59,890 nt of DNA from an uncultured Planctomycetia bacterium. GTDB lineage: Bacteria; Omnitrophota; Gorgyraeia; Pluralincolimonadales; Pluralincolimonadaceae. The translations under genes were made by a program, and so were the position numbers. Position 1 is the first letter of the stretch, and every line of letters begins with the position of its first letter. A model generated the notes under the pieces. It had not been told where the DNA came from. It ran no database searches and saw nothing but the letters and a program-made list of their open reading frames with translations. The DNA is taken from positions 1 to 59,890 of the forward strand of contig CAZAEH010000005.1 of the NCBI GenBank assembly GCA_964484255.1, read 5' to 3'. Shown here piece after piece: positions 12,987-32,509 of the stretch.

Positions 12987-13372
12987 ATAAATTCGTTAAA
13001 GGACTGAAGTTCAACGGGAACGGGCTGGTACCGGCAGTCATACAGGACGCGAAGAACAACGAAGTACTTATGGTCGCTTATATGAACGATGAGGCCGTGA
13101 AAAAGACATTAAAGACAAAGAAAGCCCATTTTTATTCCAGGTCAAGGAAGAAACTCTGGCTTAAAGGTGAGTCATCGGGGCATGTGCAGAAGGTAAAAGA
13201 AATACGTTTTGACTGCGATGCCGATTGCTTGCTTGTAAAGGTTGACCAGGTCGGCGGTGCATGCCATACGGGTTACAGGTCATGTTTTTACAGGAAACTA
13301 AAGGACAATAGGGGCAGCATTTGCATATCCGGCAAGAAGATGTTCGACCCGGATAAAGTCTATAAAAAATGA
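12983..13372 (+). CDS. hisI: Phosphoribosyl-AMP cyclohydrolase (not fused to HisE)
   Basis: [30 protein letters not shown]; 129 aa. Confidence 0.95.
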
Positions 13373-14847: not shown

Positions 14848-14848
14848 T

Positions 14849-15418
14849 ATGATATTGATGATAGATAATTATGATTCTTTCACTTATAATCTCGTCCAGT
14901 ATTTCGGGGAGATGGGCGCGTCGCTGAAAGTCATCAGGAACGACAAAATATCGCTCAGAGAAATAACAGACATGGGACCAGGCGGCATAGTGATCTCCCC
15001 CGGACCGGGCTTCCCGAAAGATGCGGGGATATCTAACTCCGTTATAAAAGAATTTGCAGGGAAGATACCTCTGCTGGGAGTTTGTCTCGGGCACCAATGC
15101 ATAGGCGAGGTGTTCGGGGGCCGGGTGATCAAAGCGGCGCGGCCAATGCACGGAAAGACCTCAAAGATTTACCACGACGGCAAAGGTATATTCAGGGGCT
15201 TGCCAAACCCGTTCGAAGCGATAAGATACCACTCGCTAGTGGTCGAGCGTAAGTCCCTGCCGGATTGCCTGGAAATAACCGCCCAGACCAAGGAAAAGGA
15301 GATAATGGGGCTCAAGCACAGGAAATATCCCGTTTTGGGGGTGCAGTTCCATCCGGAATCCATCCTTACATCCGGAGGGAAGAAAATGCTGAAGAATTTT
15401 ATGGAGCTTGCCAAATGA
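14849..15418 (+). CDS. trpG: Anthranilate synthase component II (glutamine amidotransferase)
   Basis: [33 protein letters not shown]. Confidence 0.96.
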
Positions 15419-16425
15419 TAAGAGAGGCTATTTCCAAGCTCGTCAGGTCCGAAGACCTTACAAGGAAAGAGATCGAATTGACCATGGACGAGATCATGAC
15501 TGGCCAGGCCCTTCCTGCGCAGATCGGATCGTTCCTTACCGCCATGAGGATGAAAGGCGAGACCATAGACGAGATAGCTGGTGCGGCCGAAGTAATGAGG
15601 AAGTATGCGACAAATATAAGGACAAGACACACATGTGTCCTCGATACCTGCGGCACGGGAGGGGACGAGTCCCGGACATTCAATGTTTCTACCGTAGCAG
15701 CTTTTGTTGCAGCCGGCGCCGGAGTTGCAGTCGCGAAACACGGCAATAAATCGGTGTCGTCAAAATGCGGCAGCGCGGATCTTCTTAAGGCTCTCGGCGT
15801 CAATATCGATGTAAGCGAACATATGGTATCCAAATGTCTCGATGAACTTGGCATTGGTTTCCTTTTCGCGCCGGCATTACATAGGGCAATGCAATATGCT
15901 ATAGGTCCCCGTAAGGAGATAGGCATACGTACCATATTCAATATTTTGGGTCCTTTGACAAATCCTGCAAAGGCTTCTCACCAGCTGCTGGGGGTTTACG
16001 ATTATAAGCTGACCGAACCCATAGCACGGGCTCTGGGTAAATTGGGTTCCAGGCACGCATTAGTGGTCCACGGCGACGATGGTCTCGACGAGGTCACAAC
16101 GACAGACATGACGCAGGTATCGGAGCTAAGGGACGGAAAAGTAAAGAATTATGAGATCTCCCCTAAACATTTCGGTATAAAGAAAGCAAAACCTGCAGAT
16201 TTAAAAGGCGGCGACGCGGCCTATAATGCAAAGCTGGCGATGTCCATCCTTGGGGGAGAAAGAGGACCCCAATACGATATAGTGATATTTAACGCCGGTT
16301 GCGCAATTTATGCTGCAGATAAGGCACAAAACATTAAAGAGGGTATAGAACTGGCTGCGGAATCCGTCGAATCCGGAGAAGCCTTGAAAAAACTCGAACA
16401 GCTCAAGGAGGTAACTAGCTCATGA
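15415..16425 (+). CDS. trpD: Anthranilate phosphoribosyltransferase
   Basis: [32 protein letters not shown]. Start at the ATGA overlap with trpG (15415). Confidence 0.96.
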
Positions 16426-17198
16426 TAACCCTCGATGATATTATAGAGCATAAAAAACATAAGTTGGAACGTTTGCAGGAAATGCTTTCCCTCCACGATA
16501 TCGAAAAGAAAGCCTTACCCGTAAAGAACAGGGGTTTTAAAACCGCAATATCACGCGGCAACAAAGTGAACTTAATAGCCGAAATAAAGAAAGCTTCCCC
16601 CTCGCACGGCATAATAAGGCATGATTTTGACCCGGTAAGCATAGCCTCCGCATACAAAGAAAGCGGAGCAAGCGCCCTTTCCATCCTGACGGAGGATAAA
16701 TATTTCCAGGGCAGTTTGGATATACTCACCAATGTAAGAGATGCAGTAAGGCTACCCATAATGCGCAAAGACTTCATAATATCGGAATACCAGATATTCG
16801 AATCGGCCATTGCCGGCGCGGATGCGGTTCTCCTTATTGCTGCGGCATTGGACAGGGGTATGCTCAAAGCGCTTTTACATGAGGCGTCTTCCCTGGGAAT
16901 GGAGACAATGGTTGAAGTCCATGATGAGCGCGACCTGGATAAAGCCCTCGGCGCAGGCGCGGAAATAATAGGGATAAACAACCGTAATCTAAGGACCATG
17001 GAAGTAGATCTGGCCGCCACCATTGAACTTATGCCGAAAATCCCTGAAGGTAAAATTGCCGTGTCGGAAAGCGGTATCGGGGAACCGGAAGATATCAGGA
17101 CCCTATCTCAATGCGGAATAAAAGCGGTCCTGGTAGGTACCGCGTTCATGGAGGCTGATGATATTGCTTCAGAGGTCAAACGGGTGATGGATTGGTAA
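16422..17198 (+). CDS. trpC: Indole-3-glycerol phosphate synthase
   Basis: IAEIKKASPS, LSILT, RKDF, GINNRNL, SESG. Confidence 0.96.
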   Translation: MITLDDIIEHKKHKLERLQEMLSLHDIEKKALPVKNRGFKTAISRGNKVNLIAEIKKASPSHGIIRHDFDPVSIASAYKESGASALSILTEDKYFQGSLDILTNVRDAVRLPIMRKDFIISEYQIFESAIAGADAVLLIAAALDRGMLKALLHEASSLGMETMVEVHDERDLDKALGAGAEIIGINNRNLRTMEVDLAATIELMPKIPEGKIAVSESGIGEPEDIRTLSQCGIKAVLVGTAFMEADDIASEVKRVMDW

Positions 17199-17824
17199 GA
17201 GTAAAGATCTGCGGGATCACTAATCTTGCCGATGCCCAGGCGGCGTGCAGGCTTGGGGCCGATGCGATCGGTTTTATATTTACGGAGAGTCCAAGGAGGG
17301 TGAACGCCGCAAAGGTAAGGGCCATAGCAGCAAAACTCCCTCCTTATATCACTACGGTCGGGGTATTTGCCGATGAAAAAATGTCTAACGTCTTAAGGAC
17401 GGCGAAATACTGCAGGCTCGATTGTCTCCAGCTTCACGGAGATGAATCGCCTGACTATTGCAGGAAGCTCAAGAAATATTATAAAATAATAAAAGTAATA
17501 AGGATAAAAGATGCCCGGAGCATAAGCAAAGCAAAGACTACGGATGCCGATGCGTTCTTGCTTGATGCATACATTTGCGGGAAGAAAGGCGGCACCGGAA
17601 CGGTTTTTAACTGGAAATTGGTTTCCGTGGCTAAGAGACTGGGAAAGCCCGTCATATTATCGGGCGGGTTGAATCCCGGGAATATCCGGAAAGCCGTAAA
17701 GCAGTCAAGGCCTTACGCCGTCGATGTCTCCAGCGGCGTGGAAGCCCGGCCTGGAAAAAAAGATATAATACTTATGGGTGATTTCATCAGGAAAATAAGG
17801 TCGGACAACTCAGGAAAGGGATGA
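17192..17824 (+). CDS. trpF: Phosphoribosylanthranilate isomerase (TTG start)
   Basis: VKICGIT, QLHGDE, GGTG, LSGGLNP, VDVSSGVE. Confidence 0.95.
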   Translation: MVRVKICGITNLADAQAACRLGADAIGFIFTESPRRVNAAKVRAIAAKLPPYITTVGVFADEKMSNVLRTAKYCRLDCLQLHGDESPDYCRKLKKYYKIIKVIRIKDARSISKAKTTDADAFLLDAYICGKKGGTGTVFNWKLVSVAKRLGKPVILSGGLNPGNIRKAVKQSRPYAVDVSSGVEARPGKKDIILMGDFIRKIRSDNSGKG

Positions 17825-17827
17825 CAA

Positions 17828-18370
17828 ATGGGTTCGAATAAACGCATGCACCGTCGCCTGGCGCTTGATGTAGAAGTCAAGTGGCACAGGAAAAAGGATA
17901 AGTCCTCAAGCAGCAAAGCTTACATGTTAAGAAGCAAGAATTTCGCTCAACATGGGCTGTTCTTGAAGACGGACAAGAAGTTCAGGATCGGAATGGATAT
18001 GGACCTCGAATTCATCCTGCCGACTATATCCCATCCCGTCTGCGTATCGGGAAAAGTCGCATGGATCGCAGATAAAGACAGGAATCCCACATATTATCCC
18101 GGCATAGGCGTAAAATTCGTTAAAATAGATCCGGAAGACAAGAAAGAGCTCATGAAATTCCTTAACCGCAAGTTCCGCAATTACAAAGACGCGCAGGAGC
18201 TTAAAAAGATGTACCTGACCCTTATAGATATGGGCGCAAGGCTTGTGGAACTCGGAGAAAGGCACCCTGGGGCCATCTATTTTAAGAAAGCGGTAGATAA
18301 CTCAATAAAGGAGATCTCTGAGGTGGCCCATCTTATAGACAAGGAAGTATCCGAGATAAAGAACCTCTAG
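17828..18370 (+). CDS. PilZ-domain protein with C-terminal helical extension
   Basis: RMHRR (RxxxR) followed by NFAQHG (degenerate D/NxSxxG), GKVAW and GIGVKF. Confidence 0.75.
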
Positions 18371-18381: not shown

Positions 18382-19230
18382 ATGAACATATTCAAGACGG
18401 TTTTCTTCCTGAGCCTCCTTACACTGCTTCTGATTTTCGTCGGCGGGATGATAGGAGGCAAACAAGGCATGATAATAGCTTTTGTTTTTGCCCTGGTGAT
18501 GAATTTTGTGTCATATTGGTTCTCTGATAAGATCGTCCTGGCCATGTACCGGGCTAAAGAGGTGGACAGGAAAGAATACCCTAAACTTGCCATGATAGTC
18601 TCAAACCTCTCCACGAAAGCCGGTTTACCTGTACCCAGGCTTTATATGATCCCTATGCAGACCCCAAATGCCTTTGCTACGGGCAGGGACCCTTCCCACG
18701 CAGCAGTAGCGGTAACATCAGGCATCATGGACATCCTTTCCGACGATGAACTCGAAGGAGTGATATCTCACGAGCTTTCCCACGTCAGGAACAGGGATAC
18801 TCTGTTAATGACGCTTGTCGCCACTATTGCAGGCGCCATATACATGCTCTCTAATATGGCCAGATGGGCAATGATATTAGGCGGAAGGGATGACGACAGG
18901 GAAGGAGGCAACGTATTCGGTATGCTCATAATAGCGATACTTGCTCCTATAGTAGCGACCCTTATCCAGCTGGCCATATCGCGCTCACGCGAATACATGG
19001 CGGATGAATCCGGCGCGGGCATCAGCGGAAGGCCTCTTTCGCTTGCCAATGCCCTTAGAAAGTTACATCAATATTCAAAACAGGTCCCGATGAACGCCAG
19101 CCCTACTACGGCGCACTTGTTTATCGTAAACCCGCTTACGGGCGGGGGGTTGCTCTCCCTTTTCAGCACGCATCCTCCTATAGAGCGCAGGATAGCGCGG
19201 CTGGAAGAATTCGCCATTAGACCGAAATAA
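18382..19230 (+). CDS. htpX: Zinc metalloprotease HtpX (M48)
   Basis: [31 protein letters not shown]; N-terminal TM helices. Confidence 0.96.
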
Positions 19231-19231
19231 G

Positions 19232-21216
19232 ATGATCCTGCCGAGCGGTCTGTTCGCCAACAAGGACCCCTTCGCAGAAGAAGGGATCTCCTGTGCCCTC
19301 ATTTTTGGAAAGAGCGGAGTACTTTCAAAATCTTTCAGGGATTACGAGTTCAGGCCGCAGCAGAAGGAGATGGCCGAATCTGTGGAAAGGGCGATCCGGG
19401 CAGGCCGCCATCTTATTGTCGAAGCCGGTACCGGGGTCGGAAAATCGTTCGCATATCTTGTGCCGGCAGCTGATTTCGCGATAAACTCACGCAGGAAAAC
19501 CGTCATATCCACCGATACCATCAGCCTGCAGGAACAGCTTGTAAGAAAAGACCTTCCTCTTGTCTCGAAGATATTGCCGGGTGAATTTAAGTTCTGCCTG
19601 GTTAAGGGCCGGTCCAATTATCTTTGCTTGAGGAGGCTCAACAGGGTCTTCTCATCAAAAAATGACCTCTTCGATTCAAAACAAGAGGTCGGGGAGATGG
19701 GTAATATACTCGCGTGGTCGAAGGTCACCACTGACGGCTCCATATCGGACTTTTCTGCTGAGCCCTCGCGCAAGGTATGGGAAAAGGTATGTTGCGAACA
19801 CGATACCTGCCTGGGCAAGAAATGCCCGTACAGGAACGAATGTTTCCTGATGCAGGCCCGCCGGAACATGCAGGAATCCGACCTGATAGTCGTGAACCAT
19901 CACCTGTTCTTCTCCGACTTGGCCCTGCGCAAATCCGATTGGGCCCTGCTGCCTGATTATTCGTGCGTGATATTAGATGAAGCCCATACGATCGAGGACG
20001 TTGCGACAGAACACCTGGGCTTTGAGGTCTCCAATTACAAAGTAAAATATCTGTTGGATTCCCTTTATAACCCGTCAAAAAGGAAAGGGTTCCTTGCATC
20101 GATAAAGGATAACTCGCTTAAAAGGACGGTAGCTGATGTCCGCGAAGCTTCGGAAAACTTCTTCGCGGATATCACGGATTGGCTTGGCGCCGACGGCATA
20201 AAGAGGGTAAGGGAACCGGGTTTTATAGAAGATACGCTATCCGTCCCCATGAAAGAACTTTACGGAAGCCTTAAAAATGCCGTGAAAGGTTCCCGCTCCA
20301 AGGATGAAGAACTGGATTTCAGATATTACATGAATAGGCTGGAAGGATTATCCCAGGCCCTGGAAATCTTCATGGACCAGAAGTTGGGGGATTACGTATA
20401 TTGGTCCGAAGTATCGGGCGGCAGGTCCCGCAGGGCGGCACTCGATTGTGCGCCGGTCAATATAGCCACGGCTTTAAGGGAAAGCCTTTTCTCAAGGATA
20501 GGGACCGTGATCCTTACAAGCGCCACCCTGTCAACAGAAGGGAATTTTGAATATATAAAAGGCAGACTCGGCCTCGATAAGTGCTCGGAAAAACTCCTCG
20601 GTTCACCGTTCGATTATGAGAATAATGTAAAGATATACATTCCCAGGAACATGCCGGACCCTAACGATTATGCAAAATACAAGACGGAAGCCGTAGCCAG
20701 GATAAAAGACTATGTATCAAGGACTGAAGGCAGGGCGTTCGTCCTTTTTACCAGTTACAAGTTCATGGACGATGCCTATAATGAGACATCTGCTTTTTTT
20801 GAGAAGATGGGCATCCCAATACTTAAACAGGGTGCCGGTTTGCCAAGGATGAAGATGCTGGAGGCCTTCAAGCGGGATAAGGGCTCCGTGATATTCGGGG
20901 TGGATTCTTTCTGGACGGGCGTAGATGTGCCCGGGGAAGCCCTCAGCAACGTAATAATAACAAAGTTGCCTTTTGCCGTGCCTGACCATCCCATATCTGA
21001 AGCCAGGATGGAAAGGATAAGAGAGGCGGGGGGAGATCCCTTTAATATGTACAGCCTGCCACAGGCGATACTCAAGCTCAAACAGGGATTCGGAAGGCTT
21101 ATCCGCACGAAGCTCGATACCGGTATGGTGGTCATACTTGACAGCAGGATACTTCATAAACCTTACGGAAGAAAGTTTTGTCGGCGCTGCCTAATTGTGA
21201 GATAATAATCCAATGA
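19232..21216 (+). CDS. dinG: DinG/YoaA-family Fe-S helicase, with an apparent 1-nt deletion near the 3' end (as sequenced, stop at 21205)
   Basis: EAGTGVGKS, four Fe-S cysteines (YLCL...CEHDTC...C...C), ILDEAH, SATL, FWTGVDVPG, QGFGRLIR. The C-terminus resumes in another frame as LSALPNCEIIIQ-stop (21216). Confidence 0.88.
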
Positions 21217-23111
21217 TGAAGAAGCACGGCGGGATAATTATAGGGTTCGTTTGCGCTGTTGTCATAGCCATACCCTACTTTCTGGGCTTTTTTGAGCTTG
21301 CGGAATATCAGGGACTTGATCTCCTGTTCAAGGTACGAGGGCCCAAGCAGGTAAGCCAGGATATAGTTATCGTGGAAATAGACGACAGGGCAATAAACGA
21401 CTTCGGCCGGTGGCCGTGGCCGAGGGGCTATCATGCCGAGTTCCTGGACATGATAGAAGAATTCGAGCCGAAAGCCGTCGTCTTTGATATCCTTTTCAGC
21501 GAAAAGGATGTGGAACATCCTGATGATGATATGCAGCTTGCCGCTATGACGAAGAAGTTGGGTAATGTATTCTTCGCCTCGTTCTTTGACTTAAGCAGTG
21601 ATAAAGTCGCCAGGAGAAAAAACCTGAGGGCCCACAAGGAAACCATACCTTTCAAGATGTTGGCGGATAACGCCAGGGGATTCGGTTTCGTGAATATACT
21701 GGTGGAACCCGACGGGAAGGTAAGGAAGATACCTCTTTTCATCTCGCGTGACGGCCAGCTCAAACCCTCAATAGATCTTCTTGCCGCCTCATACTTCATG
21801 GAATTGGATCCTTTCAAGCTATATGCCCCGACTGACGGAAAAGGGTTCATGTGGATCAATTACCCCGGGCCTTTCAACCTTTTCAAGAAAATATCCTTCT
21901 CAGATATACCTATTTCCATAGACCAGCTTGAAAAAGGGGAGAAACCCGTTATAGACCTTAATATACTCAAGGGAAAAATAGTCCTCGTTGGCTTAACCTC
22001 TACAGCCTCGGAGGATTACTGGTCGACATCTTTCTCGTCCTTATACCCCGGGGTAGGCATAAGAGCAAGCTCTATCGATACCATGCTCAGGAAAGATTAT
22101 CTTTACCGCATATTCGTCCCGGAGGTATGTCTTATCATCATAGCCATAGGCCTGGCATTCGGCATGGTACTACCAAGGCGCACTCCCATGCAGGGACTCG
22201 CCTTCTTCTTTGTGATCATTTCGGGAGTGGCTGCCCTGGCAATAATAGATTTTGCGTTTTTTAACATCTGGATGGATTTTGTGTCTATAATTATCCTTTG
22301 TTTCATAGCCTACCCCGCTATCACCTTGAACCAGTTCATAATAACCCGGTTCGAAAAAGGCATGATCGAAAAAGAACTCCAGATCGCCAGCCGTATACAG
22401 CAGTCCATATTGCCGCAGGGCCTGCCGCAGGTCCCAGGAGTGGAAGTCGGTGTCAAATGCATGCCTGCGAAACATGTAGGAGGGGATTTTTACGATTTTA
22501 TCAAACTGTTCTATGATTTTGTAAAATTGAAAGAGGACAGGCTGGGGGTGGTAATAGGCGATGTCTCGGGCAAGGGCGTCCCCGCCGCTCTTTTTATGGC
22601 AAAATCCATGGCGGATTTCAGGGGCATTTCCCATAATTATAACGAAACCGACCGGGCCCTTTCCGCCATAAACGACAGGCTTACGGAGGAAGGTGTTTCG
22701 GGCATGTTCGTGACCATGCAGTACCTGATCTATAAACCCCAGGAACGCAAGATAGAATACTCTAACGGAGGGCATAACCCATTGGTAAAAGTGGATGCCA
22801 TGGGCAATGCCTGCCTCTTGACCCAATCTGTGGGTACCCCTATAGGGATAATACCGGGCTCTGATTTTATCTCCGATGAATTTCCTGTAACGGCTGGAGA
22901 ACTTTTTCTGATGTATACTGACGGCATTTCCGAAGCAAGGGACAAGAATGGCAAGGAGTTTGGCGAAGACAGGATACTGGAAAGCGCCAAAAAATACAGG
23001 GATGGCAAAGCGCAGGAGATCGCGGATAAAATAGTCGCGGATGTCGTGGAATTCAGCAGGGGAATGCCTCAGCACGACGATATGACGGTGATAGCTATCA
23101 AGATTTTATAG
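21213..23111 (+). CDS. CHASE2 sensor domain + 3 TM helices + SpoIIE/RsbU-type PP2C phosphatase
   Basis: N-terminal TM; CHASE2 motifs IVIVEIDD, WPWPR...HA, DILFSE, GKIVLVG, YPGV; three hydrophobic helices; PP2C motifs ASRIQQSILP, VGGDFYD, GDVSGKG, YTDGISEA, DDMT. Confidence 0.88.
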   Translation: MMKKHGGIIIGFVCAVVIAIPYFLGFFELAEYQGLDLLFKVRGPKQVSQDIVIVEIDDRAINDFGRWPWPRGYHAEFLDMIEEFEPKAVVFDILFSEKDVEHPDDDMQLAAMTKKLGNVFFASFFDLSSDKVARRKNLRAHKETIPFKMLADNARGFGFVNILVEPDGKVRKIPLFISRDGQLKPSIDLLAASYFMELDPFKLYAPTDGKGFMWINYPGPFNLFKKISFSDIPISIDQLEKGEKPVIDLNILKGKIVLVGLTSTASEDYWSTSFSSLYPGVGIRASSIDTMLRKDYLYRIFVPEVCLIIIAIGLAFGMVLPRRTPMQGLAFFFVIISGVAALAIIDFAFFNIWMDFVSIIILCFIAYPAITLNQFIITRFEKGMIEKELQIASRIQQSILPQGLPQVPGVEVGVKCMPAKHVGGDFYDFIKLFYDFVKLKEDRLGVVIGDVSGKGVPAALFMAKSMADFRGISHNYNETDRALSAINDRLTEEGVSGMFVTMQYLIYKPQERKIEYSNGGHNPLVKVDAMGNACLLTQSVGTPIGIIPGSDFISDEFPVTAGELFLMYTDGISEARDKNGKEFGEDRILESAKKYRDGKAQEIADKIVADVVEFSRGMPQHDDMTVIAIKIL

Positions 23112-23134
23112 AATGATCGCGATCTTATTTTATC

Positions 23135-23163
23135 TTGACATAACAGCTTTTAAATGTTAAACT
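23135..23163 (+). promoter_or_regulatory. sigma70-type promoter with extended -10 for the TPR/barrel-FecR giant-lipoprotein operon
   Basis: TTGACA (23135-23140), 17 nt, TGn-TAAACT (23155-23163). Confidence 0.65.
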
Positions 23164-23236
23164 TATCTCAATGTAGATCAAACTTCTGACACCTTCTTTA
23201 AAAACAAACCTTAGTTAACCAAAAAGGGGTTCCGTA

Positions 23237-24751
23237 ATGCCGGTAAGGTCCAAATCTGCAGTGGCGGTATTGGTAATATTGTCAGCGGTTTTTCTTATCC
23301 CTCTACAGCAAGCTCGATCAGATACAAACCCGGATATCGAACAAGGTGTAACTCTTTACAGGCAGGAAAATTACGATGAAGCGGCGGTTGTCCTGCGAAA
23401 AGCCAGGAAAGAGGATCCAAGCTCCTCGCTTGCAGCCTATTATCTCGGGATCACCTATAAACAACTGCAGGACTACAGACAGGCAAAGACCCAGCTCATA
23501 GATGCGGTCACCATTACCCCCCGCATTAAAGAAGCCCTGGTAGAGCTCATCGATGTCCTCTACCAGCTGGGAGACCTTAAAGAAGCTAAAGAGTACATCG
23601 AGATCGCCGAGAGGGAAAACATAAAACCCGCTCAAGTGGCTTTCCTCAAAGGCCTCGTGCTGTTAAAGGACGGCAAGACCTCGGATGCCATAACTGCCTT
23701 TGAACAGGCGAAGGGGTTTGATAATTCTTTGACCCAGGCCGCAGATTACCAAATTGGCATTGCCAACCTGAAAGAGAAGAATTATAAGGATGCGAAGAAG
23801 GTTTTTCAAGAAATAATAATCCTGGACCCGAATTCCGATTTAGCAGGGTTATCGTATGAATACATGGATGCATTAAAGCGGAAAGAAGAAGCCGAGAGGC
23901 CGTTCAGGGCCACGCTTAATGTATCGGGCCAATACGATACGAACGTCCTCCTTAAACCCGGCGATGACACTGTGGCTACCGGCATTACCGACGAAAGCGA
24001 TTGGCGGGAAGTGACAAATTTCATGGGACAGTATAAGCAGAAATTCGGAGAGAATTTCGGCATAGACAGCCAGTATTCGATGTATTGGGCCCACCAGAAC
24101 AAGATAGGCGCTTACGATGTCCTTAGCCATACCGTGACAGTCACCCCAAATTATTACATAAAGAACGGTACGATAGGCCTGGCTACGGGTTACAACTATA
24201 CGGACGTGGGTGAATCAAAATACATGACGACTATCACGGCCAGCCCTCTCGTGAATTATATTATCGGTAATAACCATATGCTCCAGGCTAATTTCAAATA
24301 TCAGAAAAAGGACTTCGCCAGGGACCCGTTCATACAGGATGAGGACAGGAACTCGAACGATTATGGCGGCGGGTTAGGTTATTACTTTTTCTTTGCGCAG
24401 AACAAGGGTTTCTTTGGGCTCCACTACGGGCTCAACAAGGAGGATACTAAAGGGCGGAATTGGGAATATCTCGGCAACAGGATAACTGCTACTGCGCTTA
24501 TCCCGTTCCTTAAAAAATTCAGGCTCAGCCTGGCGGGCGACGTGTTCCTCCAGGATTTTTCGAATACGAACACCATATTTAACGTCGACCGAAATGACGA
24601 GACATATACGGCATCTTCCATGCTCGGCTATACATTCTGGAAGGAAGCCGAATTGCAGTTCAGGTATACATACGTAAAGGACCATTCAAATATAAAAGTG
24701 TACGATTACGACAGAAGCATTTACAGTATAGGCATAGAATATAAATTTTAA
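23237..24751 (+). CDS. Exported TPR + C-terminal beta-barrel outer-membrane protein (Slam/DUF560-like architecture)
   Basis: Signal peptide (…QQARS/DT); about 5 TPR-like repeats (AYYLGITY, YQIGIAN); C-terminal ~285 aa of alternating aromatic-rich beta strands ending YSIGIEYKF (BamA-type terminal Phe). Confidence 0.75.
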   Translation: MPVRSKSAVAVLVILSAVFLIPLQQARSDTNPDIEQGVTLYRQENYDEAAVVLRKARKEDPSSSLAAYYLGITYKQLQDYRQAKTQLIDAVTITPRIKEALVELIDVLYQLGDLKEAKEYIEIAERENIKPAQVAFLKGLVLLKDGKTSDAITAFEQAKGFDNSLTQAADYQIGIANLKEKNYKDAKKVFQEIIILDPNSDLAGLSYEYMDALKRKEEAERPFRATLNVSGQYDTNVLLKPGDDTVATGITDESDWREVTNFMGQYKQKFGENFGIDSQYSMYWAHQNKIGAYDVLSHTVTVTPNYYIKNGTIGLATGYNYTDVGESKYMTTITASPLVNYIIGNNHMLQANFKYQKKDFARDPFIQDEDRNSNDYGGGLGYYFFFAQNKGFFGLHYGLNKEDTKGRNWEYLGNRITATALIPFLKKFRLSLAGDVFLQDFSNTNTIFNVDRNDETYTASSMLGYTFWKEAELQFRYTYVKDHSNIKVYDYDRSIYSIGIEYKF

Positions 24752-24768
24752 CGGAGGAAACGCTTAAA

Positions 24769-27700
24769 ATGAAAAAATTCGCCCTGAAATCCCCGGCCTT
24801 GGCGTTGCTGCTTATAACTATACTATTTTCCGCCCCCGCGGTTCCTGCGGCCAGCGCTGAACCTGTCGGCACGATATCCGCCGTCGAAGGCCGAGTTGAC
24901 CTTTTGAAATCGGGGAACAGCGAGTTCTTCGATGTTAAATCTGGGGTCAGCGTCTCTGCCGGAGATACGCTCAGGACAAAGAGCGGTTCGAAGGCCGAGA
25001 TAGCCTTTATGGACAAGACGATAGTGCGTCTTTCGGACAGCACTTTACTGGAGATCAAAGATTATGTAATAGATCCCAATGGCAACAGGTCCGGCGCTAA
25101 CCTTTTCCTCGGCAGGGGCAAGATAAGGGCTGTCGTATCAAGATCCGGTAACGGCAACTTCCTTGTAACCACCCCTAATGCACTGGGAAGCGTAAAAGGA
25201 ACAGACATAGTGGCGGTATACCAAAGGTCTTCGACCTCCCTCGCGGTCCTTGATGGAAAACTTTCAGCCGCAAATGTGTCTGCCCCAGGAGATACGGTCG
25301 ACATAAAGAGCGGTCAGTCATCCATCATATCAGGGGAATCTGAACCGACTGCTCCCAGGGCCCTGTTATCAATGGAAATAAAGGCACACGAATCCGATAC
25401 GAACGTGCCAAAAGCAACTGCAGTTGCCGCCAGCCCGGCGCAGGAAAGGATGTCTGCGGAAGGTTATAATGCCCCAGGCGCCATGAAGGCCGTTGTCATA
25501 AAGTTAGCCGGAAGCGTCAAGATAAAGAACCGAGGGTCGATAACCTGGCACGATGCTAAAATGAATGAAGTCCTTACCGCAGGGGACACCATAGAGACAA
25601 AGGATAAGGGGAAGATAGAAATAAGACTGGAAAACGGCAATGTCGTAACGCTCCAGCAGAACTCGAACCTTATTCTTGAAAAACTGTCCTCGGACAATAA
25701 GACAGGCGATTATGAGAACCTGCTGGAATCAAAAAGCGGTAAATTAAGGGCCCAGGTCCAGAAGATAAAAGGTAATTCAAAGTTTGAAATAAAGACACCT
25801 AACGCAGTTGCGTGCGTCCGCGGAACGATAATGTATTTGAACATATTACCCAACCTTACCAATTCGTATTTTGAAGAGGGCAACGGAGTGTTGCGCAGCC
25901 TCATATCCAATACGGTAAAAGACGTGCCCCTCGGTACCGGTGCCTCGGCCGACAATGCAGGAAACGTTTCCGATCCGACCCCTCCGAACGATAACCAAAT
26001 GTCAGAATGGCACCAGGGTTGGGATGTAAGTGATAGCGGAGAAGGATATTCAAGCCCTTCCGGCGACTTGGGTCAGGACCGCGGTTCGGATGAGGGCGAT
26101 GATACAGGGTTCCAAAATAAAGTATTTGATGAAAAACCGGTCACGGAAATCATAAACACGACGGAAGAGAACGGGGACGGTGACCAGGGCGCAGGCGAAG
26201 AGGAGACCCCTGAAATAGATTATTATATTACCGGCACCGCAACCGGCAGTTTCGGTTTTGTTGAAGCTTATGACAACAACAGCTTTGACGCGTATTTATC
26301 GAGCGAGACAGTATTGTCCTCCGCATGGTCGGGATCGTTCAATCTTTCCGTCGACGGTGAGTTCTCGAGCCCCGGGTACAGGATATTTGAAGGCGACGTG
26401 TCAGCGGAAAGTATAGACGGCGGCGCGGCTTTCGGGTGGGTTGGGGGCATATTCCACAGCTGGGAAGGGATATTGTCAACGATATATATAGATCCCAGCG
26501 GGAGGGCAGGTACGCTTTTTGGCTATCTATCCGGTACTAACACTATAAACGAAGGGCAGGAATGGTATTACGGCGACTTTTCGGGAAACGGTGATATTTA
26601 CGTAATACCGATGGCCCAACTCGAGACCGGTGTTGAATATCCTGTGGAATACGGGGGCGGTTACGGCAACCTTTGGCTGTCTTTTGGCGAGAACGGCGGG
26701 TTTAACGTGGATTTTGACAGACAGATGGCAAGGATAGTGGGGCAGAACTGGGGAATATGGAGGGATGCTTATTACGGAGGATACTATAATCCTGAAGGGC
26801 TTGCCGAATGGTTCGGGAATGCCGGCGGTTATTATGGCGATGACGGCTATTTCTTCGCTACCGCAGAAGGTATCGATGACCTTGACGGAGGATTAAGGAT
26901 CGATATCATAGGTACATACCTGGACACTCATACGCTGGGCGCCTATTACGGATCCATACTTGCCGAAACATACGCAGAGGGGATGGTTGAGGGCGTTGGG
27001 CTCGGAGGATACGCGGAAGAACCGCTCGCGTTCAGCGGCAATTGGGGAAGCGATGGCTGGGGCCTTTATTACGATTGCGGAGAATGCTGCCTTACTTGGG
27101 CAGGTGAAAAGTACGGCCTCATAGGTTCCCCGACAGTAGAATGGTGGAATGAAGCTTCTTTTCCTGTAGTCGCCATGGGGGAATCTTACTGCTACGATTA
27201 TCGGAATACGCCTTTGCTTTGGGTCACACCTATCGGCAGCTATAACGCGGACAACGAGGACTATACCTCGCTTGACGGTTCGGCTTTCTGGGGGATCAGC
27301 ACCGGTATCTGGAAAGACGGCCTTATGTCCAACGGGAAAGTAGTCGCTTTCTATGTCACGCCGGAGGGGACCGTTGGGTTGCTGAAAGGTGATCTTAGCG
27401 GTGTTTACGATCCGGAAATATGCATGTGGATGGCAGAAGGTGAACTTTCTCCTGAAGCAAAAGACTCCTCTTTAATAGACCCTGCCTCACTCTATGAAAG
27501 CATAACCGAATACCGGCTCCATAACCTTTGCATGGGCGGATCTGTCGGTGGATCAGCCTTATACGGATATACTACATATGGCGTATCCTATGCAATTGAT
27601 GACGGATCGTGGGGCATATATGAGTTCGACGGCGGCGGTTATTACAACGGCGGAGAATGGGCGCAAACGAACGAGAACGGCCTTGCCTTCGGTTACATGG

Positions 27701-30153
27701 ACGGTCTTTATGATGAAGTGGTCTTCTTGACGTCAAATAATGCATTATTTGATGATGATAATATAACGGGAGCTCTCCGCGGTTCTTATATAAACATTAG
27801 CGACGGCTATATAGGGACTCTTAACGGAAATATCGTAGGCATATACGACGAGGATAGTTGGATCCTGTCTTCTATAGGCGAATGGGAAATGAGGGATTTG
27901 TCCTACGCCGGTGTTGCTTCCGAAGGCGGTTTCGGGTACTTCGACGGTGAGGGGGCGTATCTCGAGAACGGCGGTCTTTACGCTGCGATGGGTAGTGCGG
28001 ATGACCTTTTCTCCGGCCCGTCCGAATTCACTTTGATCGGCGGGTTCTATTATCCAGATTCCAACGAAGACGGTATAAGTGATGACAATTTGTGGGGCGG
28101 GGATTTCTATATGACCGCCAGTGACGGCGCCGGACTGATAGGAGCGGTCGGGGGAACTACACTGAATAATAAACTGTCTGGGGCGCTGTTGGGGATCTAT
28201 ATACGCTATACCGAGGACGGCTACCGGGCAGGATACGTGACCTCTTCCGATATTTCCGGTGGTCGCAGTTTCCTGACAGGCGATTTTTATCCGTCTATCG
28301 GGATGTTCGGCACGGAAGGCTATCTGACGGCCTTTCTCGATATGCCAACTAGTTTTACCCCCGAGGATTTGTTGAGCGAAAATGAAGAAGCGCTGTTAGG
28401 CGATGAATTTTACGACCCGGTTCATGGAGATCTTAAAGGTGATCTTTACGGCGATGATCTGCAGATCGCGGACCAGGATTGGGGCATATGGCGCGCGGGA
28501 TGCGGCGGTTGGTTCGATTCCGCCCCGGACGGCAATTGGAATTCTTACATAGCCGAGAGTTTTGAAGACCAGTACGGGGAATATTCGTTCCCGTACTATT
28601 CGCTCATCTATATCGACGGGACTACCACCGCGGACAACGGGCTTGAGGCCGTCATACACGGTTATGACCTCGGCATGACATACCTAAGCGAAGCTTCGGG
28701 GTTGATGGCCGGCGATTACGATGCCGATGAGATGAGTTGGGAAGGCCTTAGTATGGGGACCTGGGTCGAGAAAGAATTAACTCTTAGCGGACTCGGCTAC
28801 GGGGGAGTAAGAGCCGCTGGAGACTGGGATAACTGGTTTGACCCGGGCGATAGTTATGAAGATTTCTCCGGAGAATTCTCCGGTATTATAGGATCTACGC
28901 AGACCGGCTGGCAGGACGGAAGTTTCAAGGCTGTAGCGATGGGTGATTATGCGATCAATGGGTCCGCCGATTCATACCTGTTTAACGCTCAAATCGGGAG
29001 TTTCAACGCTCGAGAGATATCGTCGCTTACCCTCGATGAGGAAGGCGCTTTCTACGGGTTCGTTCACGCGGCTGTAGGGGATTCTTCCGACGGCAGGCTT
29101 ACGGATACCGCCTCGGGATTGAGGTTGGCCGCCATATATATAGCTTCTGACGGAACCGGCGGCTATAATGCGGGAGTGCTAAGGGGCGGGCTTGACATGG
29201 ACCTCGTGGAGATCCCCGATGACGGTGAAGTCGGCATGTGGATAGCCGAAGGCTACCTGACTCCTTATGTGATGGAAACTGATATCGACATCTCTCCTGA
29301 AGAGCTATCGGACTATATATCCTGGGACTGGGACGTGCTCGGGGCTTCGGGTGTCGGCTCCTTCTCAAACGGCGGCGCCATCCAGGCCGATTACTTTACC
29401 GGAGACACGATGTCCATAGAAGGCTACGACCAGTGGGGAATAATGCAGGCTGCTCTCACCGGGCAAACATCCTCGGCCGTCGATTCGGATTGGAGATTGG
29501 CCTTGGGAGGAGCCTCTTATACCGACGATTCGCATGAAATCGCGGACGGTTATTTCCTGATCTCAGCCAGTGGAGATTCCTGGTCGAATAACGTATTTGA
29601 CGGGACTTTCAAGGGCGTATACTTCAGCGAGATAGACGAAAATACCTTTAACGTCGGAAAAATAGAAGGTGATGTCGTAGGTAATTACCAGGAGGTTGAA
29701 GGCGTAGACACAGTATTCCAGGCACAGATGCTCGGGGAATGGGTTGACCTTGTCGAGTTAAGCACAGATGTCCTAGGATTTGATAATGAGGCATTAGCGG
29801 AAATGGTCCAGGTCCCGATTACCGAAACTTATACAGCGCTCCTGCAAAATGCAGGTATTAATGGTAGTCTTGATATAAGTATATACAACAACGAGATACT
29901 TACCGGTTTAATACAATTTACTCTTGCGGATCTTCCGATGGTAGGAAGTACGATTGATTTCAACGCTGGTTCAGACAATCTTGGACTGACATTCACAAAT
30001 ATCGATACAGTTGCTATGACATGGACTGCGGATGCGTTAGGCCAAATTAATAATATGCAAGCTACAGGTGGTGGAGGTGGTTCGATAACTGCCGCCGAAA
30101 ATGTATACAATTTTGACGGCGTGATAGGAGCAGTCGTTACCCCAATACAATGA
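24769..30153 (+). CDS. 1794-aa exported protein: signal peptide, two FecR-like domains, acidic linker, four ~265-325 aa acidic Gly/Tyr/Trp repeats, distinct C-terminal tip
   Basis: SPI (PAASA/EP). FecR motifs GDTLRT..AEI.F.D...F.VTTPNA..VKGT and GDTIET..IEI.LENG...FEIKTPNA..VRGT. Recurring WGI(W/Y/M), (I/F)Y(I/V)..G..G and terminal G(E/T)W motifs. Confidence 0.8.
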   Translation: MKKFALKSPALALLLITILFSAPAVPAASAEPVGTISAVEGRVDLLKSGNSEFFDVKSGVSVSAGDTLRTKSGSKAEIAFMDKTIVRLSDSTLLEIKDYVIDPNGNRSGANLFLGRGKIRAVVSRSGNGNFLVTTPNALGSVKGTDIVAVYQRSSTSLAVLDGKLSAANVSAPGDTVDIKSGQSSIISGESEPTAPRALLSMEIKAHESDTNVPKATAVAASPAQERMSAEGYNAPGAMKAVVIKLAGSVKIKNRGSITWHDAKMNEVLTAGDTIETKDKGKIEIRLENGNVVTLQQNSNLILEKLSSDNKTGDYENLLESKSGKLRAQVQKIKGNSKFEIKTPNAVACVRGTIMYLNILPNLTNSYFEEGNGVLRSLISNTVKDVPLGTGASADNAGNVSDPTPPNDNQMSEWHQGWDVSDSGEGYSSPSGDLGQDRGSDEGDDTGFQNKVFDEKPVTEIINTTEENGDGDQGAGEEETPEIDYYITGTATGSFGFVEAYDNNSFDAYLSSETVLSSAWSGSFNLSVDGEFSSPGYRIFEGDVSAESIDGGAAFGWVGGIFHSWEGILSTIYIDPSGRAGTLFGYLSGTNTINEGQEWYYGDFSGNGDIYVIPMAQLETGVEYPVEYGGGYGNLWLSFGENGGFNVDFDRQMARIVGQNWGIWRDAYYGGYYNPEGLAEWFGNAGGYYGDDGYFFATAEGIDDLDGGLRIDIIGTYLDTHTLGAYYGSILAETYAEGMVEGVGLGGYAEEPLAFSGNWGSDGWGLYYDCGECCLTWAGEKYGLIGSPTVEWWNEASFPVVAMGESYCYDYRNTPLLWVTPIGSYNADNEDYTSLDGSAFWGISTGIWKDGLMSNGKVVAFYVTPEGTVGLLKGDLSGVYDPEICMWMAEGELSPEAKDSSLIDPASLYESITEYRLHNLCMGGSVGGSALYGYTTYGVSYAIDDGSWGIYEFDGGGYYNGGEWAQTNENGLAFGYMDGLYDEVVFLTSNNALFDDDNITGALRGSYINISDGYIGTLNGNIVGIYDEDSWILSSIGEWEMRDLSYAGVASEGGFGYFDGEGAYLENGGLYAAMGSADDLFSGPSEFTLIGGFYYPDSNEDGISDDNLWGGDFYMTASDGAGLIGAVGGTTLNNKLSGALLGIYIRYTEDGYRAGYVTSSDISGGRSFLTGDFYPSIGMFGTEGYLTAFLDMPTSFTPEDLLSENEEALLGDEFYDPVHGDLKGDLYGDDLQIADQDWGIWRAGCGGWFDSAPDGNWNSYIAESFEDQYGEYSFPYYSLIYIDGTTTADNGLEAVIHGYDLGMTYLSEASGLMAGDYDADEMSWEGLSMGTWVEKELTLSGLGYGGVRAAGDWDNWFDPGDSYEDFSGEFSGIIGSTQTGWQDGSFKAVAMGDYAINGSADSYLFNAQIGSFNAREISSLTLDEEGAFYGFVHAAVGDSSDGRLTDTASGLRLAAIYIASDGTGGYNAGVLRGGLDMDLVEIPDDGEVGMWIAEGYLTPYVMETDIDISPEELSDYISWDWDVLGASGVGSFSNGGAIQADYFTGDTMSIEGYDQWGIMQAALTGQTSSAVDSDWRLALGGASYTDDSHEIADGYFLISASGDSWSNNVFDGTFKGVYFSEIDENTFNVGKIEGDVVGNYQEVEGVDTVFQAQMLGEWVDLVELSTDVLGFDNEALAEMVQVPITETYTALLQNAGINGSLDISIYNNEILTGLIQFTLADLPMVGSTIDFNAGSDNLGLTFTNIDTVAMTWTADALGQINNMQATGGGGGSITAAENVYNFDGVIGAVVTPIQ
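26218..29742 (+). repeat. Four degenerate protein-level tandem repeats (~26218-27012, 27013-27885, 27886-28764, 28765-29742)
   Basis: WGI motif Trp codons at 26749, 27610, 28480 and 29434 (spacing 861, 870, 954 nt). Shared IYIDPSGRAG / FYVTPEGTVG / IYIRYTEDGYRAG / IYIASDGTGGYNAG; M(W/F).(A/T)EG.L in units 2-4. No obvious nucleotide-level identity. Confidence 0.75.
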
Positions 30154-30431
30154 GAATAACACCTTTTCTCTTAATGTTCTTACTATTGGGCTGTGGGAAG
30201 CCGGCTGAAAAACCGGCTTCCCCGCAGGCCGCGTCCAGGGTAATCGCTACTGTCAACGGCGAACCCGTGTTCGAAAAAGACCTGAAACTTTCCCTTGCCA
30301 TACGCCTTAAGGACGATCCGGGTTTTAGGGTAACTCCCTCCACAAAGAACGAACAGATACAGTTGATCATCAACGAACGCCTGAAACTCCAGCACAAGGA
30401 CAGGGCCTCTTCGGACATCAAGATATTCTGA
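30150..30431 (+). CDS. Small lipoprotein with SurA/PrsA N-terminal-like segment, no PPIase domain
   Basis: Lipobox LLLGC (Cys15); VIATVNGEPV..KDL motif; ATGA overlap with the giant gene. Confidence 0.65.
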   Translation: MRITPFLLMFLLLGCGKPAEKPASPQAASRVIATVNGEPVFEKDLKLSLAIRLKDDPGFRVTPSTKNEQIQLIINERLKLQHKDRASSDIKIF

Positions 30432-30524: not shown

Positions 30525-31715
30525 GTGAAACTGCCCGATAACAAAGGCCATTTCGGCGTTTTCGGAGGAAAGTATGTCCCGGAAACCCTGATGGTGGCCC
30601 TCGAAGAACTTGAGGCGGAATACTCCGCCGCTAAGCGAGACAAAAAGTTTGCCGAAAAATTCCGCTATTACCTGGAGGAGTATGCCGGCAGGCCCAGCGG
30701 TCTCTATTTTGCCGAAAAATTGACCAAAACTCTTAAGGGCCCAAAGATATACCTGAAGAGGGAAGACCTTCTGCATACCGGTTCCCATAAGATAAACAAT
30801 ACCCTGGGCCAGGGTCTGCTGACCGTACGCATGGGGAAGAAGAGGATAATTGCCGAAACCGGCGCCGGACAGCACGGCGTAGCCACCGCAACAATAGCGG
30901 CTCTCTTTGACCTTGATTGCGAGGTATTCATGGGCGAAGAAGATATCCGCCGCCAAGCCCTTAACGTCTTCAGGATGAAACTCCTTGGCGCAAAAGTTAC
31001 CCCCGTCACAAGCGGCAGCAAGACACTGAAGGACGCTATGAATGAAACAATGAGGGACTGGGTCACTAATGTGCGCACCACCCATTATTGTATCGGATCG
31101 GTCGCCGGACCGCACCCGTTCCCCATGATGGTAAGGGATTTTCAGTCCGTTATAGGGAAGGAAACAAGGCGCCAAATGCTGAAAGCAGAAGGCAGGCTCC
31201 CCGACTATCTTATCGCCTGCGTGGGAGGGGGTTCAAATTCCATGGGTCTCTTCTATGATTTCCTTTACGATAGAAAAGTGAGGTTCATAGGGGTTGAGGC
31301 CGCGGGCAAGGGCCTGAATACAGGCCTTCACGCAGCTACCCTGGAGAGGGGCGATATCGGGGTGCTCCACGGTAGCAAGAGTTATCTGCTGCAAGACGAT
31401 TTTGGGCAGATAAAGATCGCACACTCCTTATCCGCCGGATTGGATTATCCCGGAGTCGGACCTGAGCACTCCTTTTTCAAGGATATCGGCAGGGCAAAAT
31501 ATGTTTCGGCAACGGATACGGAGGCGTTGGATGCTTTCCGCCTTCTTTCGGAAACAGAAGGCATAATACCTGCCCTTGAATCCTCGCACGCGATAGCTTA
31601 CCTTGTTAAGACGGCAAGGAAGATGAAAAAGAATGACCTGGTTGCGGTATGCCTGTCCGGCAGAGGCGATAAAGATGTAGACATGGTCTCGCAGGTCCTT
31701 TCGGGAAAAATATGA
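30525..31715 (+). CDS. trpB: Tryptophan synthase beta chain (GTG start)
   Basis: HTGSHKINN (PLP lysine), [35 protein letters not shown]. Confidence 0.99.
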
Positions 31716-32509
31716 ACAGGATAGAAAAGAAATTCTCCGACCTCAAGAAGAATGGCGGTAAGGCCCTTATAGCCTTCTTCACTGCAGGCGACTATGGGCT
31801 TTCCGCCACTAAGAAACTCGTCCTTGAATTTGAACAGAGGGGCGTAGATATTATCGAGCTAGGCGTTCCTTTTTCGGACCCTGTCGCTGACGGGCCTACC
31901 ATACAAGCTTCCTCTGAAAGGTCCCTAAAAAGGGGGACAAAGCTTAAAGACATAATATCCGCCGTCGGGCAATTACGCAAGAAGACGCAAATACCAATAG
32001 TGCTGATGGGCTACTATAACCCTATACTCAAATACGGTCTCGCCAGCTTCATCTCGGATTGCGTAAGGAACGGCGTGGATGGAGCGATAATACCCGACCT
32101 GCCTCCCGAGGAAGCCGGGGAACTGACAGCGGCGGCAAAAGGCAAGGATTTCGATATCATATTCCTCCTAAGCCCCACAAGTTCCCCGAAGAGAATAAAG
32201 ATGCTCTCCGGGAGGACCAAGGGTTTTATCTATTATGTTTCCCTGACCGGGATCACCGGGGCAAGGTCTTCGTTGCCTGCCGGTCTCGCCGAACGCGTAA
32301 AACTGATCAAGAAGACCTCGGACAAGCCGGTGTGTGTCGGTTTCGGCATCTCAAAGGCTGAGCAGGTCAAACGTATTAACGCTGTGGCCGACGGTGTTAT
32401 CGTCGGTTCGGCTATAGTAAAACAGATGGAGAAAAATTCCTCAAAGAAGAGGTTCATTAAGAATGTCGGTGATTACGTCCGTAAACTTGCGGAGGCTTCC
32501 CATCGATAA
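31712..32509 (+). CDS. trpA: Tryptophan synthase alpha chain
   Basis: [46 protein letters not shown]. Confidence 0.98.

Follow-up and report, generated by a model that had tools for sequence, protein, structure and literature searches.

Do four adjacent genes lying between the two halves of a trp operon encode one sensory system that spans the cell envelope and, if so, is that system new? The question is raised by positions 21213–30431 of contig CAZAEH010000005.1 (assembly GCA_964484255.1), from an uncultured Omnitrophota bacterium; "the window" denotes the whole stretch of 59,890 nucleotides (nt) that was analysed. An earlier reading of the letters without database searches (the sequence-only reading) had proposed an undescribed trans-envelope system, made up of a CHASE2–PP2C sensor, a Slam-like outer-membrane barrel, a giant repeat protein with twin FecR domains and a mini-SurA lipoprotein. 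Four adjacent, co-oriented open reading frames (ORFs) are indeed found, and their products are listed here with lengths in amino acids (aa).

21213–23111, plus strand: predicted inner-membrane sensor phosphatase, 632 aa, consisting of a transmembrane helix (TM), a periplasmic CHASE2 domain, three TMs and a cytoplasmic PP2C domain of the RsbU/SpoIIE type
23237–24751, plus strand: predicted outer-membrane protein, 504 aa, with a signal peptide, a periplasmic TPR domain and a 14-stranded barrel (AlphaFold2 (AF2), Foldseek)
24769–30153, plus strand: predicted Sec-exported protein, 1794 aa, with a signal peptide, two FecR-like domains, an acidic linker and β repeats of ~300 aa
30150–30431, plus strand: predicted lipoprotein, 93 aa (lipobox LLLGC), matching the first ~90 aa of a family of SurA_N-like, chaperone-type lipoproteins

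The anatomy of these genes, their conservation and their homologies identify the locus as a split form of the NsrA/CHASE2-type envelope-spanning sensory module, equipped with a giant, putatively surface-exposed passenger. As for its function, we give a probability of about 50% to a reading in which the barrel would hold the surface-displayed passenger by a periplasmic FecR plug, CHASE2 would read the plug, and the PP2C domain would act on a STAS-type partner encoded elsewhere.

The FecR head and its relation to NsrA

The connection to NsrA lies in the head of the giant protein. Two FecR stretches are recognised there (Pfam FecR, E = 1.5e-26), which bears out the twin-FecR description.

24868–25368, plus strand: FecR-like domain 1 (FecR1), aa ~34–200, the head conserved family-wide (alignment A5)
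25486–25878, plus strand: FecR-like domain 2 (FecR2), aa ~240–370, an internal duplication (z about 10)

FecR1 is shared across the whole family; FecR2 is confined to the Omnitrophota branch, and the A5 homologues from Desulfobacterota and Nitrospirota lack it. The NCBIfam models Lsa33 and LipL45, which describe a FecR-domain adhesin and a lipoprotein of Leptospira, also matched the FecR region (E ~1e-27 to 1e-29), at scores far below their own cutoffs. A tblastn search of plasmids with FecR1 returned rhizobial chromids only, among them an NsrA-like gene of Ensifer at E = 8e-9. This match (L081, 8932–12588) is a 1218-aa ORF with a FecR domain at aa 67–160, TPRs at aa 225–580 and ~600 further residues, directly followed by a CHASE2 cyclase gene. 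The orthologue of S. meliloti (L082, 4977–8570; 1197 aa, 68% identical), annotated as "FecR domain-containing protein", lies directly upstream of cyaK, and hhalign aligned the family FecR profile with it over 170 columns right after the signal peptide (97%, E = 8.2e-11). Judged by its size and its position beside cyaK, this protein is most probably NsrA, although the records carry other names; the domain make-up given here was reconstructed from those plasmid records, and in the literature NsrA measures ~1200 aa, of which 600–1200 form the barrel portion (PMC7529298). Some PLSDB records of the rhizobial NsrA-like protein read "FecR domain-containing protein" and, in one case, "TonB-dependent receptor". 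A homologue of the rhizobial protein with 36% identity is present on a Methylocystis plasmid.

NsrA is an outer-membrane protein genetically required to pass plant/uL2 signals to the CHASE2 cyclases CyaK, CyaD1 and CyaD2 (PMC7529298, PMC13001267). The window shares with this pathway a FecR domain after a signal peptide, TPRs, an outer-membrane β-barrel and an adjacent CHASE2 gene, and relatives of its cassette carry CHASE2 cyclases as well. The arrangement differs: NsrA is one polypeptide (1197–1218 aa) in Sinorhizobium/Ensifer, whereas the FecR and TPR-barrel parts are encoded by two genes in the window, which moreover adds a second FecR domain, a 1300-aa repeat passenger and a SurA-like lipoprotein, and has a PP2C output instead of a cyclase.

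Two further published gene clusters connect the same domains. In Campylobacterota a CHASE2 adenylate cyclase, a phosphodiesterase, a FecR-domain protein of the outer membrane and a TPR protein cluster together, for which a single pathway, together with a horizontal spread into other phyla, has been proposed (PMC9239204). Compared by its description, this cluster unites the same three extracytoplasmic domain types with a CHASE2 sensor; it differs in having the TPR protein separate from the FecR outer-membrane protein, and in the absence of a giant passenger, a PP2C and a SurA-like gene. In Burkholderia and relatives, a LysM-FecR protein forms an operon ("BiofilmReg") with a CHASE2 histidine kinase (PMC5192318). 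There, too, a secreted FecR-domain protein is encoded beside a CHASE2 sensor, in support of FecR as the CHASE2 partner, but barrel, TPR and passenger are missing, LysM anchors the protein to peptidoglycan, and the output is a kinase. FecR and CHASE2 are thus linked in four architectures: LysM-FecR with a CHASE2 kinase, fused NsrA with a CHASE2 cyclase, a FecR outer-membrane protein plus TPR protein with a CHASE2 cyclase, and the split form of the window. The FecR-like domain being the recurring element, a testable prediction is that it is the partner of CHASE2.

In view of the homology between the FecR head of the family and that of the NsrA-type protein, and of the Campylobacterota cluster, the word "undescribed" in the sequence-only reading was too strong; the system is not categorically new and represents a split variant of the NsrA/CHASE2 module. 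Still, our literature search found no description of the split architecture with a 14-stranded TPR-barrel, of the 300-aa repeat domain, of the similarity of the head to RIN (see below) or of the PP2C output, and the word FecR is absent from three papers on giant or very long proteins of Omnitrophota.

The classical FecA–FecR–FecI relay provides another comparison; in classical anti-sigma factors, the FecR domain has its place of action in the periplasm. The Pfam FecR domain and the idea of a relay from the outer to the inner membrane are common to both systems; the giant protein differs in carrying a cleavable signal peptide in place of an anti-sigma domain or a TM before FecR. Neither an extracytoplasmic function (ECF) sigma factor nor a TonB-dependent receptor or transducer was detected by Pfam scans anywhere in the 60-kb window, in agreement with the sequence-only reading; the same scans, supplemented by hmmsearch for STAS and RsbW, likewise yielded no STAS, RsbW or type I secretion genes.

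Gene neighbourhood and the CHASE2–PP2C sensor

The conservation of the cassette was followed across 80 loci (one genome per GTDB species), drawn from metagenome-assembled genomes (MAGs) of Omnitrophota, Nitrospirota/Thermodesulfovibrionia and Desulfobacterota, in which ORFs were called, searched with the window proteins and clustered all against all. A FecR-headed gene adjoins the barrel gene in 71 of the 80, nearly always directly downstream and on the same strand, and in the remaining nine the contig stops at the barrel gene or shortly after it. In all three phyla the barrel gene and the FecR-headed gene are obligate neighbours. Where paralogous cassettes occur in a single MAG (L008/L039, L052/L063, L053/L067), each has its own barrel. 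Two consecutive FecR-headed genes follow one barrel gene in L011, L055, L071 and L079, and in L064 the FecR gene is located upstream of the barrel gene, not downstream. In Desulfobacterota (L068, 11546–12838; L071, L077, L079, L080) a gene for a LuxR-type helix-turn-helix protein (VpsT-like) and one or two PilZ genes stand between the barrel and FecR genes. Together with the PilZ gene upstream of the CHASE2 gene in the window, these insertions hint at a connection to cyclic di-GMP.

Co-occurrence in other genomes, on which the proposal of a joint system depended, is accordingly strong for barrel and FecR, moderate for the SurA-like lipoprotein (29 loci) and facultative for CHASE2, a gene for which was located by hidden Markov model (HMM) search within 10 kb in 25 of the 80 loci, and in 8 of the 24 that offer at least 8 kb on both sides. 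Seven loci (L014, L016, L020, L021, L041, L058, L076) have the CHASE2 gene upstream of the barrel gene; in L049 and L070 it comes after the FecR gene, and in L011, L028 and L031 it closes the cassette on the downstream side. Most loci have a PP2C as the output domain of the sensor; L025, L029, L049, L070 and L076 have a class III cyclase. An output that is exchanged while the neighbours remain constant agrees with a coupling that runs via CHASE2 in the periplasm, and the recurrence of FecR-like domain, TPR, outer-membrane barrel and CHASE2 with exchangeable output argues that the parts work together. In L025 (7145–9052) and L029 (7150–9057) a dCache-HAMP-PP2C sensor phosphatase is encoded just upstream of the barrel gene, with the CHASE2 cyclase ~8 kb farther upstream; association with the cassette thus extends to PP2C sensors that have another input domain.

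The CHASE2–3TM–PP2C make-up of the window's sensor was correctly recognised from sequence.

21255–22160, plus strand: CHASE2 domain, aa 15–316 (Pfam PF05226, profile positions 3–254 of 257, E = 1.4e-50)
22533–23105, plus strand: PP2C (SpoIIE) domain, aa 441–631 (Pfam PF07228, profile positions 2–191 of 192, E = 2.2e-48)

Hydropathy places one TM at aa 8–26 and three within aa 302–365, between the two domains. The CHASE2 domain had no match among PDB sequences, and hence no solved relative there. All metal-binding motifs of RsbU-type PP2Cs (GGD..YD, GDVSGKG, NGGH, YTDG, QHDD) are conserved in the alignment with orthologues. A 7-aa tandem duplication (FYDFIKL / FYDFVKL; 22488–22529, aa 426–439) in the region of the first metal-binding motif is common to L001, L005 and L006 and absent in remoter CHASE2-PP2C orthologues. 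RsbU/SpoIIE partner switching is resembled in the complete SpoIIE-type PP2C with intact motifs, and RsbW-like kinase and STAS genes adjoin the orthologous CHASE2-PP2C gene in L011, L014, L021, L031 and L041; the window differs in the CHASE2 sensor and in having no such partner genes within its 60 kb.

The order of the genes within the window leaves room for a looser connection. Gaps of 125 nt before the barrel gene, 17 nt to the giant gene and 93 nt before trpB, together with a 4-nt overlap between the giant and lipoprotein genes, make the last three genes (23237–30431) one tightly spaced unit, as the sequence-only reading had noted. Its "clear promoter" was partly upheld: the 125-nt gap, the sole sizeable one upstream of the three-gene unit, holds a promoter-like site that is a consensus match only.

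23135–23163, plus strand: candidate promoter, TTGACA-17-TAAACT with TG (consensus scan), within the gap before the barrel gene

From trpE (13369) through the CHASE2 gene, every gap is between -20 and +11 nt, and the 125-nt gap is the first real one. The block does lie between trpF and trpB, as had been stated, but genes for a PilZ protein (17828–18370), an HtpX-type M48 peptidase (18382–19230) and a DinG-like helicase (19232–21205) also separate trpF from the CHASE2 gene, which starts 7 nt 3' of the DinG-like gene. Because the gaps in this string are only 1–11 nt, the CHASE2 gene belongs to the upstream trpF–PilZ–M48–DinG string. The trp operon itself is split into trpE, trpG, trpD, trpC and trpF (13369–17824; trpF 17192–17824) and trpB and trpA (30525–32509; trpB 30525–31715) by a 12.7-kb insert of seven unrelated genes. 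The closest relatives (L001, L002, L005, L006) share the gene order PilZ, M48, DinG-like, CHASE2-PP2C, barrel, FecR protein, mini-lipoprotein, trpB.

From this arrangement one could conclude that barrel translocon, cargo and chaperone form a display or secretion pair functionally independent of the CHASE2-PP2C protein, the latter being the last gene of the upstream operon. The 1–11-nt gaps on one side and the 125-nt gap with its promoter-like site on the other agree with such a separation, as do the divergent PEP-CTERM gene that parts CHASE2 from barrel in L001–L005 and L007 and the 16 of 24 full-flank loci that have no CHASE2 gene. Conversely, CHASE2 genes with differing outputs directly adjoin the cassette in distant lineages, and the FecR–CHASE2 link recurs in the three other architectures described above (PMC5192318, PMC9239204, NsrA–CyaK). 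We therefore regard an unlinked pair as improbable. The PEP-CTERM gene in question (L001 9300–9821, minus strand; also L002–L005, L007 and L012) encodes a ~173-aa secreted protein ending in VPEP...GRRLLRRK; at its place the window has the 125-nt gap only. A chance juxtaposition of unrelated envelope genes inserted into the trp operon would suit the heterogeneous look of the 12.7-kb insert, which includes PilZ, M48 and DinG-like helicase genes. It is contradicted by the neighbourhood data, in which the order barrel–FecR(–SurA) is conserved over 80 loci in three phyla, and is scarcely credible.

The remainder of the window consists of housekeeping genes according to Pfam scans, apart from two large ORFs (196–2547, 783 aa; 52167–54221, 684 aa) that had no Pfam match at E ≤ 1e-4. 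Nearly all Pfam-supported long ORFs are on the plus strand, and the guanine–cytosine skew is positive in each 2-kb bin of 1–59890, the cumulative skew climbing monotonically. Strand bias and monotonic skew are in keeping with a chromosomal segment on the leading strand, and nothing around the insert points to a mobile element.

The barrel, its putative passenger and the candidate chaperones

The barrel protein was modelled with AF2 from an alignment of 28 homologues, mostly from Candidatus Omnitrophota MAGs, the closest being 90% identical. The model (predicted local distance difference test (pLDDT) 89, predicted template modelling score (pTM) 0.65) consists of eleven helices followed by fourteen long strands.

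23330–23893, plus strand: TPR domain, aa 32–219, 11 helices or ~5.5 TPRs (Pfam TPR families, AF2 secondary structure)
23903–24745, plus strand: predicted 14-stranded β-barrel, aa 223–503, C-terminal ...YKF (AF2 strand list)

A word search retrieved 291 homologues of the whole protein, and the barrel part alone matched 826 clusters at 50% identity, 351 of them at E ≤ 1e-10. As most of the 150 best listed clusters are ~500-aa proteins, the TPR-barrel architecture appears stable. By Foldseek, the barrel was matched by the 14-stranded OmpG and CymA, the whole protein by the TPR-porins BcsC and PelBC; a PDB profile search with the full protein returned TPR proteins only and was uninformative for the barrel.

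The architecture justifies the term Slam-like used by the sequence-only reading, though membership of the Slam family (type XI secretion) was not supported. Were the protein a true Slam, it would translocate the adjacent protein as its cargo. Periplasmic TPRs, a 14-stranded barrel and a cargo gene next door are what both have in common, and Slam cargo also relies on periplasmic chaperones. A weak match to TPR_Slam (PF24575, E = 8.8e-4) remained under the cutoff in every scan, as did BBP2_2. SlipAM (PF04575, Slam/DUF560) was matched by 6 of 36 barrel-only sequences of the family, at best with 1e-6, but not by the window protein at E ≤ 0.1. The models BBP2_2 (32 of 36) and DUF2860 (21 of 36) fit better; in the window protein DUF2860 is under cutoff for the whole sequence and barely over for the barrel part alone (23.4 vs 22.9 bits). 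No Slam structure was among the Foldseek matches in the PDB, which are generic barrels. On the cargo side, Pfam found none of the C-terminal eight-stranded barrels (TbpBBD / lipoprotein-C) that define type XI cargo, no TbpB-like fold appeared in the top 50 Foldseek rows for the repeat unit, none of which is significant, and the conserved recognition element is N-terminal here. Type XI secretion systems (T11SS) are described for Proteobacteria, not for the phyla studied here, and the T11SS cargo survey names neither FecR nor CHASE2 (PMC12282271). The barrel protein is therefore Slam-like in architecture and not a demonstrable DUF560 member, and a type XI system in the strict sense is very unlikely.

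Behind its FecR head, the giant protein continues with a linker and repeats.

25966–26154, plus strand: acidic linker rich in Gly, Ser, Asp and Glu, aa ~400–462, about 80 aa long
26155–26604, plus strand: half repeat unit (second half), aa 463–612 (jackhmmer, HMM positions 156–281, E = 1e-17)
26659–27456, plus strand: repeat unit 1, aa 631–896 (jackhmmer, E = 1e-70)
27490–28335, plus strand: repeat unit 2, aa 908–1189 (jackhmmer, E = 2e-46)
28366–29268, plus strand: repeat unit 3, aa 1200–1500, the unit modelled with AF2
29332–29874, plus strand: partial repeat unit (first half), aa 1522–1702 (jackhmmer, HMM positions 17–141, E = 8e-26), with a ~90-aa tail to 30150

The linker, which holds the motif W..GW(D/E)..G.EGYS.P conserved in A5, is presumably disordered and may span the barrel. 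Together the half, the three full and the partial unit amount to about four copies of a ~300-aa unit, so that the repeats described by the sequence-only reading are real but diverged: Tandem Repeats Finder and self-BLAST did not detect them, windowed Smith–Waterman comparison gave offsets of 600 and 300 aa, and the unit was defined by jackhmmer. The AF2 model of unit 3 (26 unit sequences; pLDDT 87.1, pTM 0.85) is all-β, with 16 strands in two blocks. Foldseek found nothing in the PDB at E ≤ 0.001 (best E = 7.6e-3, template modelling score below 0.2), an HMM search of PDB sequences was negative, and Pfam has no family for it; the ~300-aa repeat is an undescribed domain. Homologues have 3 to 11 units (900–3756 aa) and diverge fast in sequence, and the repeat part of the window protein contains 212 D+E against 31 K+R. 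Such acidity, a copy number that varies and rapid divergence are traits typical of surface proteins.

A clue to how such a protein might be held was obtained when the family FecR profile was compared with the PDB. At E ≤ 1 only 5ix9 was matched (E = 8.3e-5, 25 bits), through the first half of FecR1, and no FecR- or PupR-type chain. This entry is the nuclear magnetic resonance structure of RIN from the Marinomonas adhesin MpIBP and served as template for the LapA retention module; RIN acts as a periplasmic plug too large for its pore (PMC5550230; bioRxiv 10.1101/198937). The NCBIfam model retention_LapA (NF033682) also matched FecR2 (E = 1e-7), at 32 bits and hence below its cutoff of 50. The likeness to LapA and MpIBP comprises a giant repeat protein with an N-terminal β-sandwich of modest similarity to RIN, followed by a flexible linker. 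In contrast to these adhesins, the window protein has a Sec signal peptide; type I secretion genes, RTX repeats or a C-terminal secretion signal, LapG and LapD are lacking in the window, and the pore would be the 14-stranded TPR-barrel rather than TolC.

The lipoprotein has no Pfam match of its own. It is homologous to lipoproteins of ~266 aa that are encoded downstream of the FecR gene in 29 loci and match Pfam SurA_N_3 (31.9 bits, cutoff 27.2) and SurA_N_2, and only through these does the label "mini-SurA" stand. The short 93-aa form is conserved in the four closest genomes (L001, L002, L005, L006) with a ratio of nonsynonymous to synonymous substitutions of 0.15–0.25 and is under purifying selection. 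OmpH/Skp genes occur in 5 loci. In 23–24 loci, the ~266-aa lipoprotein gene is followed by genes for a coiled-coil protein of ~189 aa with two TMs and a HAMP domain (2TM-HAMP) and for a secreted protein of ~165 aa (e.g. L009, 15409–16476). The latter carries an invariant AHE..H...E motif, with a downstream Glu, and has no relative in Pfam, NCBIfam or the PDB; it may represent an undescribed family of small metalloproteases. The pair recalls LapD and LapG. A search of the window for these accessory families (2TM-HAMP, HExxH protein, RsbW/STAS, Skp, PEP-CTERM protein) found none, and for want of HAMP, HExxH, Skp and RsbW/STAS genes the window cassette is a reduced form. The upstream M48 peptidase was considered as a release protease and set aside, being a polytopic membrane protease of the HtpX type that is kept in the closest relatives only.

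The same data can be read without any export through the barrel. The FecR protein would then be wholly periplasmic and docked on the TPR domain, the barrel would serve as surface receptor or channel, and FecR would relay to CHASE2 or to other inner-membrane partners, much as in NsrA. In NsrA the FecR and TPR parts are N-terminal to the barrel and presumably periplasmic, the barrel loops alone being described as surface exposed (PMC7529298). The periplasmic action of classical anti-sigma FecR domains, the short length (300–600 aa) of many homologues (L057, L060, L061, L065, L066) and the mere 14 strands of the barrel point in the same direction. A periplasm would, however, hardly accommodate passengers that reach 3756 aa and 11 units of 300 aa, and the surface-protein traits of the repeats (extreme acidity, variable copy number, fast divergence), the co-encoded SurA-like and Skp chaperones, which suggest an unfolded substrate in transit, and the similarity to the RIN plug, which suggests a threaded topology, all speak against confinement to the periplasm. 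On balance, we consider a purely periplasmic relay rather unlikely.

A proposed plug-and-sensor mechanism

In the favoured reading, topology, export and chaperoning of the passenger and its contact with CHASE2 would be connected as follows. After Sec export, periplasmic chaperones would keep the acidic passenger unfolded, namely the lipoprotein in the window and a full SurA-like protein, sometimes with Skp, in relatives. The TPR domain would dock the FecR head, and the 14-stranded barrel would let the passenger thread through or would retain it, with folding on the outside. The FecR domains, predicted to be too large to pass, would remain in the periplasm as a plug, so that the protein would be displayed rather than released. 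The same FecR domains would be the protein partner of periplasmic CHASE2; binding to the passenger, or pulling on it, would alter this contact and set the activity of the PP2C domain, which in turn would dephosphorylate a partner-switch protein of the STAS type whose gene lies elsewhere in the genome.

Several observations weigh against this mechanism. The 14-stranded barrel is narrow, the AF2 model gives no sign of an open pore, and no homology was detected between the barrel of the window and the C-terminal part of the NsrA-type protein (hhalign 0.3%; BLASTP matched the TPRs only). The similarity to RIN is modest at 25 bits and limited to the first half of FecR1. Finally, the CHASE2 gene is packed into the upstream trp–PilZ–M48–DinG string and parted from the barrel gene by the gap with the candidate promoter, a divergent PEP-CTERM gene intervenes in L001–L005, two thirds of the full-flank loci (16/24) have no CHASE2 gene within 10 kb, and the window has no STAS or RsbW gene.

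A more far-reaching version, which we put forward tentatively and hold to be possible rather than probable, treats the TPR/14-strand barrel as translocon and anchor of an unrecognised Sec-dependent, TolC-free display pathway for giant adhesins. The FecR/RIN-type domain would be both plug and protein ligand of CHASE2, surface contact or pulling would be read as Ser/Thr dephosphorylation (or as cyclic AMP synthesis in relatives), and the ancestral secreted HExxH and 2TM-HAMP proteins would control release in the manner of LapG and LapD.

CHASE2 is among the commonest extracytoplasmic sensor domains of bacteria, and its ligand has long been sought. The split form presents the parts as individually expressible proteins, which makes the contact between FecR and CHASE2 easier to test, and it adds a 300-aa β repeat that is predicted with high confidence and is unclassified. 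Omnitrophota are ultra-small, possibly host-dependent cells, for which attachment is central. For giant adhesins, the split form adds a possible second route, besides type I secretion, by which they may be held at the cell surface by a periplasmic plug.

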